Of a DNA stretch of 25,358 nt, positions 1,329 through 20,048 are shown in pieces. Position 1 is the stretch's first letter; every line of letters starts with the position of its first letter. A model generated the notes under the pieces. That model was not told where the DNA came from. It did no database searches and worked only from the letters and a program-made list of their open reading frames with translations. A program made the position numbers and the translations under genes. The DNA is taken from positions 133,256 to 158,613 of the IMG/VR virus record IMGVR_UViG_3300047444_000753. One strand, written 5' to 3'. Origin of the DNA: a virus. Its lineage: Duplodnaviria > Heunggongvirae > Uroviricota > Caudoviricetes.

Positions 1329-1347
1329 CCTTTCCGAGTTGACATTG

Positions 1348-1374
1348 AAGAGGCCCGAAAGGGCCTTTTCTTTT
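1348..1374 (+). terminator. Rho-independent terminator
   Basis: AGGCCC-GAAA-GGGCCT stem-loop (1351-1366) with a GNRA loop, followed by TTTCTTTT, about 20 nt after the protease stop. Confidence 0.85.
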
Positions 1375-1416: not shown

Positions 1417-1426
1417 ATGATATACT
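1417..1426 (+). promoter_or_regulatory. Extended -10 promoter element upstream of the capsid gene
   Basis: ATGATATACT (TGn-TATACT) in an AT-rich intergenic region after the terminator. The same 10-mer recurs at 5365-5374. Confidence 0.65.
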
Positions 1427-1540: not shown

Positions 1541-3706
1541 GTGGATCAGATCCGTGAAAGCCTAGACAAAATCTCCGACCTTTCGGACGATGAGCTCGAC
1601 GCACTCGAAAATTCTGTTGTTTCAGAGTTCAAGACGGTTCAATCGCAAGACCCGACTCGTGAAGTTGTAACCAACATGATCGCCCTCGCCGACGCAGCGG
1701 ACGCAGTCCGTTCCGAACGCGAGACTCGTAGCGCCGAATCCGCCAAACTTGCACAGGCCGCTGCTGACGCAGTTGCTCGCATGTCCAAGGACACGGATGA
1801 CGACGGAGACGGTGACGTTGACCCTGAGGGCAACGGAGAGCCGGACACCGACGACGCTGACAGCACCGAAGCACCTGCAGGATCCACCGATGACACAGAA
1901 ACACCTGATGCCACCGAAGATCCCGCTACGGACCCCACTGAGGATCCGACTGAAGCTGCCGAGCAGCCTCCAGTAGCCGAGACAGAGGCCCCTGCGGAAG
2001 ACCCCGCAACCGCCGCTATCGCCGCTCCTGCGAAGGATGACGAGACAGCCCCAGAGGACGCTCCCGCTGCCGTTACCGACGAGGCTACGCCAGCCCCTGA
2101 CGCTGAGCCCGCAACCCCCACAGACGCACCAGCAGCGGATCCGTCCGCTGAGGACAGTGCAGCCGGTGGCGGCGAGGACACAGACAACGCAGATGCTGAG
2201 CCTGATCTGACTGACGAAGACAAGAAGAAGATTGCAAATCTTGCCGCCGCCGCAGATCCGACTGTTGAAGATGCACCTAAAGAGTCCGAAGCAGCAATTG
2301 ACGAAACACCCGCAGACGAAGCCAAAGAGCTAGCTGCAACCGACCCCACAACTACCGACGCTGAACTTGCGTCGGACGAAATCCAGAAAGAGGACCCCGT
2401 GACTGCCTCAGCAACTCCAGAAGGGCTTGAATTCCAAGCTCCGGCAGATCGTTCGCCTGCTATCCCCGCTGTCAAGGCCCCAATGACCATCACCGCTGGT
2501 GCTGACATCAAGGGCATCCCTATGGGAAGCCAGCTTCCCGACATCGCCGCTGTGGCTTCTGCTCTTCTTGAGCGCAAGAAGTCCATGGGCAAGACTTCCG
2601 GTGGAGACGGAGAGCAGTCGCTCGTCGCTTCCTTCCGCACGGACTTCCCTGAGGCACGTTTCCTGAACTCCTCGGACTTCGAGGGCAACCGCGCCAAGGT
2701 TGACGGCGTCGTTTCTGCTACAGCCATCACGGCTGCCGGTGGTCTGACAGCACCTGTCGAGACCTCCTACGACATCTTCGAACTCGGAGAGACACTTGAC
2801 CGTCCGGTCAAGGACGCCCTCGCCGTCTTCGGTGCTGATCGTGGCGGTATCCGCTTCATGACTCCGCCGCTGCTCACAGACCTGAACGGTGCTGTGTCCC
2901 TGTGGACCATGCAGGATGACATCGACGCCGCTACGGAAGGTGCTCCGGATCCGGAGAAGCCCTGCCTCCGCGTTGCCGCTGGCACAGAAATCGTCGTCTA
3001 CGTAGACGCGATCCCGCTCTGCCTCACCTTCGGCAACCTCGGCGCTCGCGCCTTCCCAGAGCTCGTTGAGCGTCACACCAAGCTCGGCATGGTTCTCCAC
3101 GCCCGCTACGCTGAGACTCGCCTGCTCACCCGCATCGGTGCACTCTCCACTCCGGTCACAGCCGCTTCTGAGCTCGGTGTCGCCCGCGACATCTTCGGCC
3201 AGATCGACCGCGCCGCAGCTGCCTACCGCTCCCGCTACCGCCTCGCAGAAGACGCTCCACTGCGCGTCATCTTCCCGTCTTGGTTCAAGAACGCACTCCG
3301 TGCCGACCTGATCAAGCAGCTTCCGGGCGACGGTCGCGAAGGCACATTCAACCTCGCAGAGGCTGAGATCAACGGCTGGTTCGCTACTCGCTCCATCAAC
3401 GTGTCTTGGCACATCGATGGCGAGACCGGCCAGATCTTCGGCACACAGGACGCCGGGGCAGAGCTTCTCGCTTTCCCATCCGACGTTATCTGGTACCTCT
3501 TCTCTGAGGGCACCTTCCTCTTCCTCGATGCGGGAACTCTCGACCTCGGACTTGTCCGTGACTCGACCCTCAATGGCACAAACGATTACAAAATTTTCTT
3601 GGAGACTTTTGAAGGCGTTGCCAAGGTTGGCGTCGAATCCCTCCGTGTCCAGAGCAAGCTGGCCCTCCGTGGATCCGCTTCCGCTACTACAACAGTAGCT
3701 GGCTAG
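1541..3706 (+). CDS. Major capsid (hexamer-type) protein with N-terminal scaffold-like acidic extension
   Basis: AAGGAGG RBS before GTG 1541, which is preferred over ATG 1520. The protein has a helical N-terminus, a ~200-aa D/E/A/P/T-rich linker, then a ~325-aa globular domain from ITAAGGLTAPVETSYD ending in GTLDLGLVRDSTLNGTNDYKIFLETFEG, as I recall for actinophage major capsid proteins. It sits after the protease. Confidence 0.85.
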   Translation: MDQIRESLDKISDLSDDELDALENSVVSEFKTVQSQDPTREVVTNMIALADAADAVRSERETRSAESAKLAQAAADAVARMSKDTDDDGDGDVDPEGNGEPDTDDADSTEAPAGSTDDTETPDATEDPATDPTEDPTEAAEQPPVAETEAPAEDPATAAIAAPAKDDETAPEDAPAAVTDEATPAPDAEPATPTDAPAADPSAEDSAAGGGEDTDNADAEPDLTDEDKKKIANLAAAADPTVEDAPKESEAAIDETPADEAKELAATDPTTTDAELASDEIQKEDPVTASATPEGLEFQAPADRSPAIPAVKAPMTITAGADIKGIPMGSQLPDIAAVASALLERKKSMGKTSGGDGEQSLVASFRTDFPEARFLNSSDFEGNRAKVDGVVSATAITAAGGLTAPVETSYDIFELGETLDRPVKDALAVFGADRGGIRFMTPPLLTDLNGAVSLWTMQDDIDAATEGAPDPEKPCLRVAAGTEIVVYVDAIPLCLTFGNLGARAFPELVERHTKLGMVLHARYAETRLLTRIGALSTPVTAASELGVARDIFGQIDRAAAAYRSRYRLAEDAPLRVIFPSWFKNALRADLIKQLPGDGREGTFNLAEAEINGWFATRSINVSWHIDGETGQIFGTQDAGAELLAFPSDVIWYLFSEGTFLFLDAGTLDLGLVRDSTLNGTNDYKIFLETFEGVAKVGVESLRVQSKLALRGSASATTTVAG

Positions 3707-3718
3707 TAGTAAATCAAT

Positions 3719-3844
3719 ACAGTAACAGTAGCTGGACTCGAAATTCCATCGGAGAAATGAAATGGTAAGACCGACAAATACTCTCATTGAGACTACGGGG
3801 CCAGAGGCTTCTCCATTTGGGATTTTGAGTCCAGCTACTACTGT
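3719..3844 (+). promoter_or_regulatory. Long RNA stem enclosing the RBS and start codon of the second capsid gene
   Basis: 3727-3748 pairs with 3818-3839 over 22 consecutive positions (20 Watson-Crick, 2 G-U). GGAGAA 3751-3756 pairs with TTCTCC 3809-3814. ACAGT 3719-3723 pairs with ACTGT 3840-3844. Confidence 0.7.
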
Positions 3845-4628
3845 CGTAGAACGTCACGATGATTACTGGCTCTCCGGTTTCGTTTACGAAATCGGGGATG
3901 CCCGTGTCAAGGTGGACAACGCCGTAATCCTCGGTGCCAACACCCCCGCAGAAGTCACAAGTGTCGTCCCGAATGAGGGCGACACCTATGGCCTCTACTT
4001 CCCCTTCGACATCGAGGCAGAGGTTGAACACTCAACCCTCGGTGTGACCCCTGAGGAGGTCGAGACCTCTGCAAAGAAGGCCCTCGATGTCGTAACTCAG
4101 AAGGCTATCGAAGTTGAATTCTGGGGTGGCGGAGTTGCAAAGCTCCTCACCAAGGAGAACAAGAACCGCTACCTCGCCAGCACAGACTCCATCGATGTCA
4201 CGCCTACCCCGGGCACGGCTGTCAAGCCACGCTACGGGCTGGCACTGCTCGAAGGCGCTCTCGGGGACGCGACGCTCGGTTCGGTTGGCACGATCCATGC
4301 ACCGCGAGCGGTGGCAGGGATCCTCAAGCTTGAAGAGGACAGCAATGCGCTGTTCACCAAGCTTGGCAACACGGTAGTTGCAGGCACCGGATACTCCAAG
4401 ATCGGCCCCACAGGAGCCGTAGCAGGAGCAAACCAGTACTGGATGTACGCCACAGGACCTGTGACCGTCATCCTCGGCGACATGAACATCACCCCCGGTG
4501 AGGTCTCTCAGGCCATTGATACACGTGTAAATACTATCAAGTATTACGTCGATCGTCCAGCCGCCGTCACATGGTCCACCACAAACGTCTACGCAGTACT
4601 CATTGATCTATCGCTAGACTACGCTTAA
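3762..4628 (+). CDS. Second capsid protein (major capsid pentamer-type)
   Basis: 288 aa with a GGAGA RBS, immediately after the major capsid gene. Motifs PFGILS, GTIHAP and TKLGNTVVAGTGY...WMYATGPV resemble pentamer capsid proteins of Rosebush-like actinophages (recognition from memory). Confidence 0.7.
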   Translation: MVRPTNTLIETTGPEASPFGILSPATTVVERHDDYWLSGFVYEIGDARVKVDNAVILGANTPAEVTSVVPNEGDTYGLYFPFDIEAEVEHSTLGVTPEEVETSAKKALDVVTQKAIEVEFWGGGVAKLLTKENKNRYLASTDSIDVTPTPGTAVKPRYGLALLEGALGDATLGSVGTIHAPRAVAGILKLEEDSNALFTKLGNTVVAGTGYSKIGPTGAVAGANQYWMYATGPVTVILGDMNITPGEVSQAIDTRVNTIKYYVDRPAAVTWSTTNVYAVLIDLSLDYA

Positions 4629-4647: not shown

Positions 4648-5301
4648 ATGGCTTACGATAAATCAGCCAGTATTTCGGGTTCCGTAATCCGTGTTACCCG
4701 TCTCAATGCAGACGGATCAACGGCTGTTGGCCCTAGTGCCTCATTTGTCACCCGTGCCTTCATCTCGGTCAAGATCACACCCGAGTACGAAGCTGGTACA
4801 GATATCACAACCAAGCTTGCTGACGGTACCATCGGTATCGCCTACAAGACCCCCAACACACTGAAGCGCGTCAACATCACGCTCGGTGTCGAGAACCCTG
4901 ACCCCGAACTCACGGAACTCATCGCTGGCGGAACCATCCTCGGCGCATCGCAGGGCTTCGCGGCCCCAGCGATGGGTGTGATTGGATCCCCGAACGGTGT
5001 CTCCATCGAGGTCTGGTCCAAGGCTATCCTCAACGGTCGTCCCGCAGCTGTCAACCCTTACTGGCACTGGCTCATCCCATACGCCCAGATGCAGGGCTCC
5101 GGCGATAAGACCATCGCTGAAGGCGTCCTCGGAACCGAATTCACCGGCTACGGTGTGGGTAACCCGCTCTTCGGTATCGGCTCCGGCAACACCCCAACAT
5201 GGCCGTGGATCACCGACCGCGCCTACGCCTATGCTCGCACAGACTCCATCCCGGACATCCCGGCTGGTGGCTCGGGCTACGTAGCAACTACAGGTCCATA
5301 A
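4648..5301 (+). CDS. Major tail (tube) protein
   Basis: 217 aa with an AGGAAGG RBS and strongly C-ending codons. Motifs GSVIRVTRLNADG, PEYEAG and IEVWSKA...YWHWLIP resemble actinophage tail tube proteins. A hairpin follows the gene. Confidence 0.75.
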   Translation: MAYDKSASISGSVIRVTRLNADGSTAVGPSASFVTRAFISVKITPEYEAGTDITTKLADGTIGIAYKTPNTLKRVNITLGVENPDPELTELIAGGTILGASQGFAAPAMGVIGSPNGVSIEVWSKAILNGRPAAVNPYWHWLIPYAQMQGSGDKTIAEGVLGTEFTGYGVGNPLFGIGSGNTPTWPWITDRAYAYARTDSIPDIPAGGSGYVATTGP

Positions 5302-5319
5302 GTAATACCCTACAACATT

Positions 5320-5360
5320 TCTGGCTGGTTCGTTTATTCGAGCCAGCCAGAGCTGTTTGT
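5320..5360 (+). terminator. Probable intrinsic terminator or mRNA-stabilising hairpin
   Basis: TCTGGCTGGTTCG-TTTATT-CGAGCCAGCCAGA forms 13 bp (one G-U) after the tail tube stop. The U-tract is weak (GCTGTTTGT). Confidence 0.65.
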
Positions 5361-5364
5361 GGTC

Positions 5365-5374
5365 ATGATATACT
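5365..5374 (+). promoter_or_regulatory. Extended -10 promoter element
   Basis: ATGATATACT, identical to 1417-1426, lying between the hairpin and the next RBS (GGGAG). Confidence 0.6.
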
Positions 5375-13859: not shown

Positions 13860-15043
13860 TGGCCGTGGCTCAGGTGGTAACATCGCCTGACTCCTCAATG
13901 TGGTCTGTATATCTTCTCAACACCATTTCAGGTCAGATCGGCCCCCGGGTCGATGTTGACGCCACATCGTGGGACATCCCACTAAATGGTATTGAAACTC
14001 TCAAGACCACCATTAAGAAGTCAAGCGTCCCAGACCTCATCGATCAGAGCAAATGGTTTGCCCCGTGGTGGGGCGGAATCCTGCTCAAATACGGGGATGT
14101 CCCTGTCTTTGCTGGCGTGATCACAGGACGACCGTTGGAGAACTACAACGACATCGAACTGGACTGCGTGGGTATCAGGGCCATCCTTGCCAACCGCGTC
14201 GTGGCGCAGGAATTCACCGACTGGTCACTACTTGCCAAGAGCAAGATCGCCTACTACAAGCTTGGATTGGGTACAATCGCCAAACGTGTTGTGCAGGCGG
14301 TACAGCTGAAGCCCGGTGGGGCACTTCCAATCTCCTATCCGGTTCCGGACGAGACACAGGACGGCACGCCCGCCCTTGATGACCTTGACCACCAGCGTGT
14401 ATATGAGGGCTACGACCTACAGAACATCACCTGTGATGCAGTACTCACTAAGCTCTCAGAGGTCCACAACGGGCCTGACATCATGTTCCGCCCACGCATG
14501 GCCGATGGTGGGACGGTTACATGGGACATGTGGACTGGCACCGAAGGTGACCCACGAATCGCCCAGCAGCATCTGCACGTCTGGGACACGGATGCAAGTC
14601 TCGGTGCCGTTGCTGACCTGAGCATTGTTACTTCAGGAGCCTATCAGACCAACCGTGTCTACAGCTTGGGTGCTGGTTCCGGACGCGGAACGCTCATCAC
14701 GATGTCGGAAGATTTGACGACAATCAGTAAGGGATTCCCGCTTCTCGAATCTGTTATTGCCATCTCCCAGAGCACGAATAAGAACGTCGTGCAAGCACAT
14801 GGTGACGCGGTACTTCATCAGAACCAACAGCTCATCCGGGAAATTACCCTTACCGTTCGAGCCGGTGGATACTACCCGATCGGTACCTACTGGCCCGGAG
14901 ATCTCGTCGGCATCTACACCAAGGGCTGGGTAGCCCTAGAGGACGGCGTCCATCTCTGCCGTCTGCTCCACATGTCCGGAGACTTGACTACAGCATCCGA
15001 TATCAAACTTGTTATGCAACCCGAGGTGTACATTGCTGGTTAG
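13859..15043 (+). CDS. Minor tail protein (baseplate hub-like)
   Basis: 394 aa with a TAATG overlap. Motifs PVFAGVI, LTKLSEVHNGPDIMFRP, GFPLLE and YWPGDLV resemble actinophage siphovirus hub proteins. Confidence 0.75.
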   Translation: MAVAQVVTSPDSSMWSVYLLNTISGQIGPRVDVDATSWDIPLNGIETLKTTIKKSSVPDLIDQSKWFAPWWGGILLKYGDVPVFAGVITGRPLENYNDIELDCVGIRAILANRVVAQEFTDWSLLAKSKIAYYKLGLGTIAKRVVQAVQLKPGGALPISYPVPDETQDGTPALDDLDHQRVYEGYDLQNITCDAVLTKLSEVHNGPDIMFRPRMADGGTVTWDMWTGTEGDPRIAQQHLHVWDTDASLGAVADLSIVTSGAYQTNRVYSLGAGSGRGTLITMSEDLTTISKGFPLLESVIAISQSTNKNVVQAHGDAVLHQNQQLIREITLTVRAGGYYPIGTYWPGDLVGIYTKGWVALEDGVHLCRLLHMSGDLTTASDIKLVMQPEVYIAG

Positions 15044-18000
15044 ACGCATCACCCCCTCCATGCACGGGCTCGCCGAAGCCCTGCGCTCCATCGACAAAAA
15101 CGCCAAGCAACAGGGCACTGCTCCGGTCGGCAGTATTGTCATCAATGAGGACCAGACCCTCTCGACCATGGACCCGGACACCGGAGTCTCTGCGGTCTTT
15201 GGCCTGCAGGATGACGGATCTGTCGGCTTCAAGCAGTTCCTCGGAGACACGACCCCGCCGTCTGCTCCCACGGCCCCTGCCGTCTCAAGCTCGGCGGGCA
15301 TCTCCCTCATCGGATGGGATGGTCTCTTTGGAGACGGCAGTCTTGCTCCTGCGGACTACGATCACTGCAACGTCTATGGACAAAAAGTCGGGGATACCGT
15401 ATCTGTCCTAGTTGGGTCGGTAATCAACCCCGGAGACACGATAAGCTACGCCGGAGGGGTTCCGGGAGATTCATGGACCTTCTGGTTGACGGCTCTAGAC
15501 ACAAACGGGAATGAGTCGGATATCAGCCCGACGACGACCGCCAAGATTGCATCGGTGCTGGACGACACAGGCCTCTCACAGGCCCTTGCAGACAACACCA
15601 AGGCCATTGACGACGCCAATACGGCCATCGCCCTCAAGAGCTCCATTCTGTCCGCCTCAGCGGCCCCCAGCGGTTCCCACAACGTCAACGATATATGGTT
15701 CAACACCTCGGAGGGCAACAAGCCTTACCGATGGAACGGATCCGCATGGGTCACGACCGAAGATCAGGCTGCCATCGACGCGAAGGCAGCGGCACTAGAT
15801 GCGCAGAATGTTGCAGTGTCCGCAAATACTGCCGCGACCAACGCCCAGAATGTGGCAGTCTCTGCCCAGAATACAGGTGTATCTGCGCAAAACACTGCTG
15901 TTTCGGCCAACAACCTCGCTATTTCGGCCCAAAACACTGCTGTGTCCGCACAGAACATTGCTGTGTCAGCACAGAGCACTGCTGTATCTGCTAACAACCT
16001 CGCTGCCTCAGTCAACAGCACGGCAGTTTCCGCCAATAACGTAGCTGCATCGGCCCAGTCTGCCGCAATTTCTGCAAACAACACTGCCATCTCGGCTCAA
16101 AACACAGCCGTCTCGGCCAATAATGCAGCTGCTTCGGCACAGGCCACCGCAAATTCGGTAAACAGCATTGCAGTTTCTGCAAACAACACCGCTATTTCCG
16201 CTAACAATACAGCAATTTCTGCCAACAATACAGCCATCTCAGCACAAAATACTGCTGTGTCCGCAAATACGGCGGCAATCTCGGCTCAGAATATTGCTGC
16301 CTCGGCCAACACCGTCGCTGCATCCGCCAACAGCACGGCCATCTCTGCACAGAACACTGCTATTTCAGCCCAGAATACGGCAGTATCTGCTAACAATACC
16401 GCAATTTCGGCTAATAACGTAGCTGCTTCGGCCCAGACCGCAGCAGCATCTGCAACCAGTACAGCGATCTCTGCAAACAACACCGCTATCTCGGCCAATA
16501 ACGTAGCAGCTTCAGCCAACACGACTGCTGCGTCTGCTCAGAGTGTCGCGGCATCTGCCAACACCGTCGCAGCATCCGCAAACAGTACTGCGATCTCGGC
16601 AGGCAACACCGCCGTCTCCGCGAACAACGTAGCTGCCTCTGCCCAGAGCACCGCTACTTCGGCCCAGAGCGCCGCTGTCTCGGCACAGAATGTTGCGGCG
16701 TCGGCTAACGCTCTTGCAACTACTGCAAACAATACTGCAAACTCCGCTCAGGTCATTGCCAACGGTAAGAACCACATCTTCCTCACAAGCTCAACCCCTA
16801 CTGCCAGCGCAGACGGGGACATGTGGGTTGATCTCGGCAACGGCAGGACCCTGAAGTCATGGAGCGCGTCTTCCACAGCTTGGATTCCAACGATCCAAAA
16901 CGGGGCAATCACCGCCACCCAGATTGCCGCAGACACCATCGTGGCGGGAAACATCGCCGCTGGTGCCATCACGGCTTCGGAACTCGCTGCCAACTCTGTC
17001 AGCGCCAGTGCCCTAGCTGCGAACTCCATCACCGCGACAGCCCTTGCCGCAGGATCCATCACGGCTTCTGCTCTCGCGGCTCAGTCGATCACAGCGACAG
17101 CACTGGCCGCTCAGAGCATCACCGCGACAGCTCTGGCGGCGGGATCGATCACTGCAAGCGCCCTCGCTGCCCAGTCGATCACTGCGACGGCCCTTGCAGC
17201 CAAGAGCATTACCGCCAGCGCCCTTGCCGCAGGATCCATCACTGCCACTGCATTGGCCGTAGGCTCCATCACTGCCAGCGCTCTTGCTGCCCAGTCGATC
17301 ACGGCTACAGCTTTGGCAGCGCAGTCCATCACCGCCTCAGCTATGGCCGCAGGCTCGATCTCCGCTACAGCCCTACAGGCTGGGTCTGTTGCAGCCTCCA
17401 CACTTGCCGCACAGTCGATCACAGCTACGGCTCTCGCGGCCCAGAGCATCACGGCCAGTGCACTGGCCGCTCAGAGCATCACCGCGACAGCTCTGGCGGC
17501 GGGATCGATCACTGCAAGCGCCCTCGCTGCCCAGAGTATTACGGCTTCTGCTCTCGCCGCACAGTCCATCACGGCATCTGCTATGGCGGCGGGCTCTATC
17601 TCTGCAACAGCCCTGCAGGCCGGATCGGTAGCGGCCTCAACTCTTGCTGCCCAGAGCATCACAGCGACAGCCCTTGCAGCACAGTCGATCACGGCTACGG
17701 CACTTGCTGCCGGGTCAATCACGGCGTCGGCTCTGGCAGCTGGGTCAATCACTGCAAGCGCCCTCGCTGCCCAAAGCATCACCGCGTCAGCGCTTGCAGC
17801 TAACTCGATCACAGCGTCTGCTATTGCCGCAGGTGCCGTCATGGCGTCGGAACTTGCAGCCGGTTCCGTGACCGCTACAGCGCTGGCCGCACAGTCGATC
17901 ACGGCCACTGCACTGGCGGCTCAGGCCATCACCGCTTCCGCTATGGCCGCAGGATCCATCTCTGCTACGGCCCTGCAGGTAGGCTCAGTAGCGGCGTCCA

Positions 18001-20048
18001 CACTCGCGGCACAGTCCATCACGGCTACTGCACTAGCTGCTCAAAGCATCACTGCCACGGCGCTTGCGGCAGGGTCGATCACTGCATCAGCTCTGGCGGC
18101 ACAGTCCATCACGGCTACTGCACTAGCTGCTCAAAGCATTACTGCATCAGCTCTGGCCGCGCAGAGCATTACGGCTACAGCCCTCGCAGCCGGATCCATC
18201 ACGGCCTCAGCGCTCGCCGCACAGTCCATCACGGCGACGGCACTGGCAGCTGGGTCAATTACGGCCAGTGCGCTTGCAGCCCAGTCAATCACAGCTACGG
18301 CTCTCGCGGCCCAGAGCATCACGGCCAGTGCACTGGCCGCTCAGAGCATCACCGCGACAGCTCTGGCGGCGGGATCGATCACTGCAAGCGCCCTCGCTGC
18401 CCAGTCGATCACAGCTACGGCTCTTGCCGCACAGATCATTACTGCCAGCGCCCTTGCTGCAGATAGTGTTACAGCGTCAGCCATTGCCACAGGAGCTGTA
18501 ACTGCCGACTCCATCGCGGCGGGATCAATCACGGCATCAGCACTTGGTGCCGCGTCTGTCACGGCCTCTGCAATCAAGGCCGGATCCATCACGGCATCCT
18601 CCGGCATCATCGCCGACATCACCGCTGACGCGATCCAGTCCGGAACACTCAGCGCCAATTTCGTCACCATCGGTTCGGGTACGAACGCCCTCTCGGATGC
18701 CGGATTCAACAGCACGCAGATCACGAATGCCCGAACAGCGCTGTCTTCCGGAGGAACCGCTGGTTGGGTTATCGCCAATGGTACGTCTTCGGGGCTGAAG
18801 AAGGCTACCAGAACTACAACCACTACCTCGGACACCTTCTCCTATCTTGTAGATCCACACACCTACGCCAATGCCGGTCAACTCATTCCGTGTGTGGCAG
18901 GTCAGGTATGGACACTGAAGGCCGACACAACTACTAGTGCATCTGCTGCTGCGATTACCTTCCAAGCATACACAGCCAAGGCTGACGGAACCGTAACTAC
19001 TACAGCCATCACAACCACATCCATCTCCACTACTGCCCAGCGCCCGGTCTCTGCGACTTACACGATTCCGGCAGGCGTCACCGGCTTTATGATTGGCCTC
19101 AAGTGCAATACTTCAGGCGTCACATGGTCCGTACACGGTAATGCCTATGTCGGCCAGCAGGTTACTGGAGATCTGATTGTCAATGGTGCTATTGACGGTA
19201 AGACCATTACTGGTGCCCAAATCCAGACTGCTAGCTCCGGTGCCAGAATTACGCTTAATAACGCAGGACTCAATGGCTGGGATGCGAGCGGAAACAACTA
19301 CCTACAGGCTAACCCAGACGGAATCGTCGTAACAGGAACAGTCAGCGCGAGTGGTATTGGTTGGAACGGAATAAGCCGGTATGGCTTGAGTGCCGTTGTT
19401 GGACCTACGGCAATGCAGAACCTCCCCGGACTGCAGACACAACAAGGATATCTACCCGGATATGGTCCTCCGGATGCAGCCCCCGGAATTGGCTTCTTCC
19501 CGGATGGCGAGACCATGACTACCGTAGCCGGTCTGGGATCCACCGATGGGTTCAACGCAATCCTCTCGGCAGGTAATAACGGAGCTACAGGAGTTCAGGT
19601 TCCGTCCATCATATTGGATGGCAATGGCATCACACTGAATGGGCATGTGGGTGCAACAGATATTAGTATGAGTAGTGGCTATGTCACCACCACGCAATAC
19701 TTCACCCCATTGCAACCTGCAGGCTGGACTATTCAGGGGACTGTGTATCTTGATACCTCTAACACCGACTCCCGAGTATTGATGACAATCAAGGCCATAC
19801 GAACTGGCGGCACTATTAGCATGCCAGCGGGGTCCTATACCTCGATTGGAACTATTGTGCCAACCAATTGCCGAAGTTCTAATGGTGTACAGGCATATAG
19901 CCCCGGTCTATTGACTGGTGGTACATCTCCAGCTAAAACAACCACATTTATTAACCCCTCAACGGGGCAGCTACTTGTGATGCCTGATGTGGCCCAAACA
20001 GTTGCAAATAACTGGGCGCTTACGTTTACGCACGCATGGACAATGTAG
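15033..20048 (+). CDS. Large repeat-rich tail fibre / minor tail protein
   Basis: Probable start is TTG 15033 (GAGG at 15023-15026); the ORF track gives 15009. Order of parts: Fn3-like domain (DTTPPSAP...WLTALDTNGNES), Trp-containing knuckle, heptad repeat, second knuckle, decapeptide repeat, jelly-roll/CBM-like region, GKTITGAQIQTASSGARI segment, C-terminal tip. Confidence 0.85.
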   Translation: MLVRRITPSMHGLAEALRSIDKNAKQQGTAPVGSIVINEDQTLSTMDPDTGVSAVFGLQDDGSVGFKQFLGDTTPPSAPTAPAVSSSAGISLIGWDGLFGDGSLAPADYDHCNVYGQKVGDTVSVLVGSVINPGDTISYAGGVPGDSWTFWLTALDTNGNESDISPTTTAKIASVLDDTGLSQALADNTKAIDDANTAIALKSSILSASAAPSGSHNVNDIWFNTSEGNKPYRWNGSAWVTTEDQAAIDAKAAALDAQNVAVSANTAATNAQNVAVSAQNTGVSAQNTAVSANNLAISAQNTAVSAQNIAVSAQSTAVSANNLAASVNSTAVSANNVAASAQSAAISANNTAISAQNTAVSANNAAASAQATANSVNSIAVSANNTAISANNTAISANNTAISAQNTAVSANTAAISAQNIAASANTVAASANSTAISAQNTAISAQNTAVSANNTAISANNVAASAQTAAASATSTAISANNTAISANNVAASANTTAASAQSVAASANTVAASANSTAISAGNTAVSANNVAASAQSTATSAQSAAVSAQNVAASANALATTANNTANSAQVIANGKNHIFLTSSTPTASADGDMWVDLGNGRTLKSWSASSTAWIPTIQNGAITATQIAADTIVAGNIAAGAITASELAANSVSASALAANSITATALAAGSITASALAAQSITATALAAQSITATALAAGSITASALAAQSITATALAAKSITASALAAGSITATALAVGSITASALAAQSITATALAAQSITASAMAAGSISATALQAGSVAASTLAAQSITATALAAQSITASALAAQSITATALAAGSITASALAAQSITASALAAQSITASAMAAGSISATALQAGSVAASTLAAQSITATALAAQSITATALAAGSITASALAAGSITASALAAQSITASALAANSITASAIAAGAVMASELAAGSVTATALAAQSITATALAAQAITASAMAAGSISATALQVGSVAASTLAAQSITATALAAQSITATALAAGSITASALAAQSITATALAAQSITASALAAQSITATALAAGSITASALAAQSITATALAAGSITASALAAQSITATALAAQSITASALAAQSITATALAAGSITASALAAQSITATALAAQIITASALAADSVTASAIATGAVTADSIAAGSITASALGAASVTASAIKAGSITASSGIIADITADAIQSGTLSANFVTIGSGTNALSDAGFNSTQITNARTALSSGGTAGWVIANGTSSGLKKATRTTTTTSDTFSYLVDPHTYANAGQLIPCVAGQVWTLKADTTTSASAAAITFQAYTAKADGTVTTTAITTTSISTTAQRPVSATYTIPAGVTGFMIGLKCNTSGVTWSVHGNAYVGQQVTGDLIVNGAIDGKTITGAQIQTASSGARITLNNAGLNGWDASGNNYLQANPDGIVVTGTVSASGIGWNGISRYGLSAVVGPTAMQNLPGLQTQQGYLPGYGPPDAAPGIGFFPDGETMTTVAGLGSTDGFNAILSAGNNGATGVQVPSIILDGNGITLNGHVGATDISMSSGYVTTTQYFTPLQPAGWTIQGTVYLDTSNTDSRVLMTIKAIRTGGTISMPAGSYTSIGTIVPTNCRSSNGVQAYSPGLLTGGTSPAKTTTFINPSTGQLLVMPDVAQTVANNWALTFTHAWTM
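15801..16766 (+). repeat. 21-bp / heptad repeat, 46 units, consensus A-[NQ]-[NST]-[TVA]-A-[IVA]-S
   Basis: Counted from the translation (AQNVAVS ... ANNTAIS ... AQVIANG). The register is unbroken and codons are diverged. Confidence 0.95.
16899..18600 (+). repeat. 30-bp / decapeptide repeat, about 57 units, consensus A-[QG]-S-I-T-A-[ST]-A-L-A
   Basis: An Ile/Val codon ends every 30 nt from 16910 to 18590 with no indel. Confidence 0.95.

Follow-up and report, generated by a model that had tools for sequence, protein, structure and literature searches.

A long predicted mRNA helix around the start of a pentamer-like capsid gene: a candidate stoichiometry-setting element in actinobacterial phages

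The structural module and its hexamer-pentamer junction

The window (the whole stretch of DNA analysed here, 25,358 nucleotides) forms the end of IMG/VR record IMGVR_UViG_3300047444_000753, which is 158,613 bases long and 91% complete. It carries the structural module of a siphophage: portal/protease, a phrog_777 major head gene, a phrog_779 gene, and major tail, adaptor, tape measure and tail genes, with a repeat-rich tail-fibre-like gene of 1679 aa at 15009-20048. The features around the two capsid genes are as follows.

1347..1374, + strand: terminator-like hairpin at the end of the preceding portal/protease unit, with a 10-bp stem, GAAA loop and T tail; read from the sequence, absent from the terminator/promoter scan output
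1418..1426, + strand: extended -10 promoter-like motif TGATATACT before the hexamer gene (motif scan)
1541..3706, + strand: major capsid hexamer gene (phrog_777, E 3e-79; 76% to Racecar 'major capsid hexamer protein')
3719..3723, + strand: outer 5' arm of the helix, then a 3-nt bulge (pair probabilities)
3727..3748, + strand: intergenic 5' arm of the core helix, spanning -35 to -14 relative to the start codon (fold, alignment)
3751..3756, + strand: GGAGAA, the SD-like sequence of the pentamer gene, which pairs in this genome (pair probabilities)
3762..4628, + strand: pentamer-like second capsid gene, 288 aa, predicted HK97 fold (phrog_779, E 4e-30; homology, fold)
3809..3814, + strand: anti-SD TTCTCC, codons 16-18 of the pentamer gene (fold)
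3818..3839, + strand: 3' arm of the core helix, in the P-F-G-I-L-S-P-A-T region at codons 19-26 (fold, synonymous conservation)
3840..3844, + strand: outer 3' arm (pair probabilities; relatives)
4648..5301, + strand: major tail (tube) protein gene, third of the unit (phrog_792, E 3e-21)
5319..5352, + strand: 14-bp terminator-like hairpin ending the three-gene unit (scan)
5366..5374, + strand: next TGATATACT promoter-like motif, after the tail-tube gene (motif scan)

The hexamer open reading frame is listed from ATG 1520, although GTG 1541, which stands behind AAGGAGG, is the likelier start judging from the sequence. The hexamer leader (1495-1525) is predicted to form an 8-bp hairpin with extensions just upstream of the hexamer SD, with ATG 1520 inside it.

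The closest cultured relatives of the 288-aa product are found in the Arthrobacter phages Mimi, Racecar, Talia1610 and Atuin (56-58%). Records matching the protein number 56, some of them annotated 'major capsid pentamer protein'; matches to the Gordonia proteins so annotated are weak (E 4e-7 to 1e-4), as are those of its profile to PG1 gp13 and Rosebush gp16. Top Foldseek matches of the predicted model (pLDDT 75) were HK97-fold capsid proteins, and a search of the PDB by sequence found no relative. The phrog matches, annotated relatives and predicted fold agree with the gene identities given in an earlier note on this DNA. The gene at 3762, which follows the hexamer gene, thus appears to encode a pentamer-like capsid protein, and we infer from weak homology and fold that this protein is the penton and sits at the vertices. 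In Jabs, a T=9 phage with two major capsid proteins, adjacent genes supply 80 hexons and 11 pentons (480 and 55 subunits), and MCPp occupies the five-fold vertices (10.64898/2026.07.24.740622); Jabs is likened here by description, not by homology. In L033-L035 and L082 the pentamer gene starts with TTG, a possible second way to keep its level low. A mini-ORF (ATG AAA TGG TAA, 3757-3768) overlaps the pentamer start in the window, and in close relatives ATA replaces its ATG. A hexamer-pentamer fusion made by ribosomal hopping or read-through was rejected, given three tandem stops, further pentamer-frame stops before the ATG, and no conserved slippery site.

Copies of TGATATACT lie at 1418, 5366 and 12944 of the window and at 28962, 61892, 85291 and 117758 of G000:C1, all on the + strand; these seven forward copies and none in reverse compare with one of each for a control. 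The motif sits at starts of structural units and is likely to be the late promoter. Among 23 relatives examined, some with loci cut short, a like motif precedes the hexamer gene in 18 and follows the tail-tube gene in 19, while the intergenic region and the pentamer gene hold none (0 of 23). Stray matches fall inside the hexamer gene in three relatives and the tail-tube gene in one. Because motifs flank the unit in most relatives and are missing from the intergenic region and pentamer gene, hexamer, pentamer and tail tube are probably carried on one transcript. A candidate tail-tube promoter, TTGATC-17-TAATTT at 4603 over the end of the pentamer gene, was dismissed: its -35 half is broken in many relatives and follows V/I-D-L codons. 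A soil metatranscriptome (word share 0.14) holds contigs from a relative that fill 27 of 30 bins, one of them running from 3702 to 3946; as contigs give no ends, strand or level, they were set aside as evidence. If the head is T=13-16, a guess from genome length, it would need 720-900 hexamer and 55 pentamer subunits. Tail geometry and the 1375-aa tape measure put the tail-tube need at about 300 subunits. This high-low-high layout supports a need for post-transcriptional lowering of the middle gene.

Between the hexamer and pentamer genes, 3727-3748 pairs with 3818-3839 over 22 consecutive pairs, exactly two of them G-U, and encloses a 69-nt loop that holds the start codon (ATG 3762). Inside it the SD GGAGAA pairs with TTCTCC (pair probabilities 0.71-1.0), and beyond the 3-nt bulge five outer pairs join 3719-3723 to 3840-3844 (0.58-0.97). 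All of this agrees with the earlier note, as does its placing of the stem base about 12 nt past the hexamer stop (3706), which is where the outer pairs begin; the 22-bp core begins at 20 nt. Folding the junction gave an MFE of -65.4, against -40.8 +/- 4.3 for shuffled sequences (z -5.69; none of 200 shuffles as good). When the 55 nt upstream of each start were compared with +25 to +120, the pentamer junction yielded 22 bp and the other 18 of the 19 window starts 6-10 bp, including the tail-tube start, which has 7 bp and thus no leader-to-coding helix. The junction ranks top of the 223 SD-bearing genes in the record (the next has 15 bp), and its helix is the longest uninterrupted one with a 30-150 nt loop on either strand of the whole record (the next is 19). 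Chance pairing is excluded.

An intrinsic terminator was rejected as a reading of the structure: the 69-nt loop is too long, no T run follows 3844, and the scan does not list it. A 5-pair hairpin with a T-rich tail does lie behind the 3' arm, within the pentamer gene (3865-3878); such sites occur at chance level. The last codons of the hexamer gene (3692-3702) and the 5' arm (3725-3735) share the direct repeat ACAGTAGCTGG. A switch in which the 3' arm would pair instead with ACAGTAGCTGG at 3692-3702 was discarded, with a probability of 0.0, a duplex of -20.6 vs -49.0, and its absence from L001 and L002.

Selection on the helix and the two junction designs

The capsid family comprises over 850 records in the phage collection, including cluster B mycobacteriophages. 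We gathered 152 loci; the window and L001-L136 were reduced to 79 by dropping loci without a hexamer match upstream or a start candidate, those with intergenic lengths beyond 20-140, and those whose junction was identical to another; 16 cultured phages were then added, giving 95 junctions, with manual placement of the starts in L124, L126 and L150. Junctions with a significant leader-to-coding helix and no strong local hairpin were termed type A, and those with an intergenic MFE below -20 and no helix type B. By these definitions 56 junctions are type A, 30 are type B, three are both and six are neither; shorter pairing still closes the starts of these six (20-34 kcal/mol to open). Many type A loci are closely related to one another, and grouping at 50% protein identity leaves 30 clusters (11 A, 14 B, 3 unclassified and 2 mixed). 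On a 56-row tree, where each type requires six changes and well-supported branches force four for A and three for B, the helix and hairpin designs swapped about six times.

Cultured phages of type A are Mimi, Atuin, Pumpernickel, Cece, A3Wally and BlueNGold; those of type B are Rosebush, PG1, Corofin, Apex, Wizard, Vivi2, TurkishDelight and DSL-LC01. In L137-L152, L011 and L013 (cluster B mycobacteriophages, and Gordonia, Streptomyces and some Microbacterium phages), a long local stem stands upstream of the pentamer SD, with an intergenic MFE of -30 to -57. Few T residues follow the type B stems, but T counts are unreliable, the script having often taken an enclosing fold. These hairpins may be terminators, nuclease sites or stabilisers. 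Since they leave the SD open, they must act differently from the helix. In Rosebush, gp17 is encoded directly behind the pentamer gene and is abundant in the virion (PMC7150772), so a strong stop at the hairpin of that phage is doubtful. A third design, with a short leader, a 15-bp hairpin in the coding sequence and local SD pairing, was seen in the Microbacterium phages Busephilis, Matzah and Teamocil (L145, L150 and L151). The annotated start of Matzah gene 24 seems too far downstream.

To check relatives for compensatory changes, 46 of the 56 type A loci were aligned by sequence only. The rows were selected for having the helix, which favours the result; six of them have a misaligned 5' arm, which has the opposite effect. 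Of the window's 28 core and SD pairs, 22 show two-sided changes, in 115 alignment cells vs 42 in shuffles, and none of 500 shuffles matched this. Among the 17 best core pairs, 15 change on both sides and 89.5% of cells are paired, vs 18-43% when the arms are slid; again none of 500 shuffles did as well. The SD pairs are kept in 45-60% of cells, and the outer pairs, with weak covariation, are paired in 70% of cells in relatives. In an alignment-free swap test on 25 representatives, leaders paired over 15.8 bp with their own gene vs 8.4 bp with other genes; the own gene was best in 15 cases, tied in seven and beaten in three, the ties lying mostly within the window's clade. Arm sequences are replaced in full from clade to clade, also where the encoded peptide differs, as in BlueNGold.

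Synonymous identity, from 32 sequences, is highest at codons 21-27, which form the 3' arm (0.81 vs a gene mean of 0.50). A second peak, at codons 10-16, coincides with a conserved hairpin inside the enclosed loop (codons 10-18 in L018-L029). At the junction between the pentamer gene and the next gene, 54 of the same loci gave a mean of 7.4 bp and a maximum of 13. As judged from covariation, the own-gene swap test and synonymous constraint, the helix is real and under selection in cis at the hexamer-pentamer junction, as had been proposed. The further argument that its G-U pairs point to RNA, and to the + strand, is only suggestive: G-U cells do outnumber A-C cells (25 vs 8; 20 vs 11 in another count), but the distinct events do not differ significantly (9 vs 6, p 0.61).

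How the helix might act on pentamer synthesis

We infer that pentamer output is lowered, and consider it very probable that the structure lowers it by some route. That the pairing leaves pentamer output unaffected (as a DNA-level feature, a stabiliser of the hexamer 3' end only, or an incidental fold) would fit the non-significant G-U asymmetry, but chance is excluded, the arms always flank the start codon, and a 3'-protecting stem needs no coding arm, as type B phages show; we regard this reading as very improbable.

Among the 56 type A loci, the median length is 17 bp for the longest uninterrupted helix and 33.5 bp with extensions, and 43 loci have at least 16 bp. The inner end of the conserved arm lies at a median of -17 and comes to -12 or closer in only seven, so the SD pairing of the window is best viewed as an extension of the conserved helix. 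The earlier description of a helix that 'locks the RBS' therefore goes too far, the SD pairs being kept in about half of the cells. The helix does include the SD itself in L045, L115, L116 and L122, which are distant type A loci, and in several distant loci it has only 11-14 uninterrupted bp, located on the SD.

This geometry bears on the suggestion that the helix is a substrate for host RNase III, a double cut excising about 90 nt with the pentamer SD, start codon and first ~23 codons. Pentamer translation from that mRNA would then be ended for good, and an intact hexamer message and a tail-tube message would be freed. An RNase III site requires about two turns of regular duplex, a length found here (22 uninterrupted bp in the window, a median of 17 in type A), and the near-perfect duplex, with its best-kept pairs flanking the RBS rather than covering it, suits such a nuclease. 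The enzyme is encoded in an actinobacterial control genome and not in the phage. Type B phages also have a long stem just upstream of the pentamer gene, and one double-strand-specific nuclease could explain both designs. Against this stand the distant loci with short helices on the SD, and a cut in the type B stem would leave the pentamer RBS whole. We consider RNase III cutting the strongest competing explanation, possible though rather unlikely as the principal function.

The cost of opening -20 to +13 was computed as a measure of start accessibility. In only 18 of 30 loci did the pentamer start come out as the more closed of the two capsid starts. The hexamer start, too, is predicted to be rather closed, which speaks against a simple lock, and the two window costs nearly agree (16.5 kcal/mol for the pentamer vs 14.5 kcal/mol for the hexamer); equilibrium opening energy was accordingly abandoned as a measure of repression, as it does not cleanly split hexamer from pentamer starts. 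The clearest signal in these predictions is one of timing, between nascent and full RNA. For 25 type A representatives the predicted cost rises from 11.2 kcal/mol with the transcript ending at +40 to 20.9 kcal/mol at full length, vs 14.8 and 14.7 kcal/mol for 25 type B representatives, a contrast that partly follows from type A being defined by the helix. In the window, extending the 3' end through +65 to +75 raises the predicted cost from 7.4 to 16.5 kcal/mol.

By analogy with the MS2 maturation gene, we propose that the predicted helix throttles pentamer translation, the start being open only until the 3' arm has been transcribed, a proposal to which we give slightly better than an even chance. 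Most ribosome loading at the pentamer start would fall in the period when RNA polymerase travels from about +30 to about +85. The core of 17-22 bp (~33 bp with extensions) would then close the start into a structured loop, remove the single-stranded landing region at -35 to -17 and stabilise the weaker SD pairing. Each mRNA would thus yield few pentamer subunits, and hexamer and tail-tube output would stay high. Several observations sit less easily with a throttle: (i) the best-kept pairs in the window's clade lie upstream of the SD, (ii) the pentamer start is predicted to be the more closed in little over half of the loci, (iii) the long regular duplex exceeds what SD occlusion needs and suits a nuclease, and (iv) the hairpin-type alternative leaves the SD open. 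RNase III cutting fits the high-low-high layout and the flanking duplex as well as the throttle does, and the two can act together.

The earlier note had the helix 'opened by ribosomes terminating upstream', which amounts to translational coupling: the pentamer gene would be translated only when ribosomes complete the hexamer gene. The outer pairs of the window, 12 nt past the stop, and the arms at 12 nt or less in six of the 56 loci would suit such coupling, as would the intergenic length, held at 27-60 nt in type A. However, the arm begins a median of 19.5 nt past the hexamer stop (range 4-31), and for 49 of the 56 loci it is at least 14 nt away. In the window, the predicted cost remains 16.5 kcal/mol when as many as 25 nt beyond the stop are masked, which argues against opening by a terminating ribosome, and we judge coupling to be improbable. 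Feedback on pentamer synthesis by a capsid or scaffold protein bound to the helix and its A-rich bulge would account for the recurrence of the bulge or internal loop and the outer pairs in the window's clade, but the bulge is kept in that clade only and arm sequence turns over completely between clades, making such a binding site a most improbable explanation.

At the level of the family, we think it fairly probable that phages with separate hexon and penton genes set capsid stoichiometry by an RNA device at one junction, having repeatedly switched between a leader-to-coding clamp (allowing one short burst per transcript, or RNase III excision) and a local hairpin. If true, this would be a new and widespread family of mRNA structures that set stoichiometry. 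Outside a few coliphages, little is known of how a single phage transcript supplies structural proteins in very unequal numbers; in this large family of phages of soil actinobacteria, the junction that needs a high-low-high ratio is precisely the one bearing a covarying structure. Both designs have cultured members (Mimi, Atuin, Pumpernickel, A3Wally and BlueNGold; Rosebush, PG1 and Wizard), so the proposal is directly testable. For annotation, the element marks the pentamer gene and its true start, and it warns against recoding the first 27 codons.

Comparison with known systems

No Rfam family matched the window at gathering score; a mir-605 hairpin fell below threshold (30 bits vs 98). Full-text searches of mostly open-access literature, on capsid stoichiometry and dual-MCP actinophages, on transcription in cluster B, and on long-range mRNA pairing, RNase III, T4 and surveys of structured RNAs, brought up no description of the element; the supplement to a survey of 224 motifs (PMC5737381) could hold a related one. 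We saw no mention of it in 10.1101/2022.09.09.507160.

The nearest parallel is the MS2 maturation gene, for which the kinetic logic is proven and a delay of about one second is enough for ribosome loading (PMC4615214). As is proposed for the present junction, pairing in cis silences a low-copy virion protein and nascent RNA offers a short window for translation, and in both cases the pairing covaries between phages; MS2 differs in being an RNA phage, in that its inhibitory strand lies upstream and pairs with the SD, and in that its delay comes from a metastable hairpin (PMC4615214). Here, a dsDNA phage operon is concerned, the partner strand lies in the coding sequence, the 17-22 bp helix lies for the most part beside the SD, and transcription order would provide the delay. 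The likeness is one of principle only, and no sequence relation is claimed.

Translational coupling by long-range pairing is known from the MS2 coat and lysis genes, the Min Jou interaction, and rplJ-rplL and rpmI-rplT of E. coli. There, as is predicted here, a downstream start is closed by pairing within a polycistronic mRNA, but the strand that closes it belongs to the upstream gene and is freed by ribosomes translating that gene, whereas in these phages it is intergenic and set back from the stop. The RNase III sites of phage T7 and of lambda sib are long, nearly regular stems between or across genes. The present duplex, known from prediction, differs from these in that its 69-nt loop holds a start codon and one of its arms lies in conserved coding sequence.

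T4 is named as a dual-MCP phage in 10.64898/2026.07.24.740622. Like the junction described here, its gp23/gp24 pair comprises adjacent genes for separate hexon and vertex proteins needed in very unequal numbers. A terminator stands between genes 23 and 24 of T4, a layout that resembles the type B relatives (cluster B mycobacteriophages and Gordonia phages) and not the helix type. The principle behind the proposed element is known, and the helix family, its site at the hexon-penton junction and its alternation with a local hairpin appear to be new.
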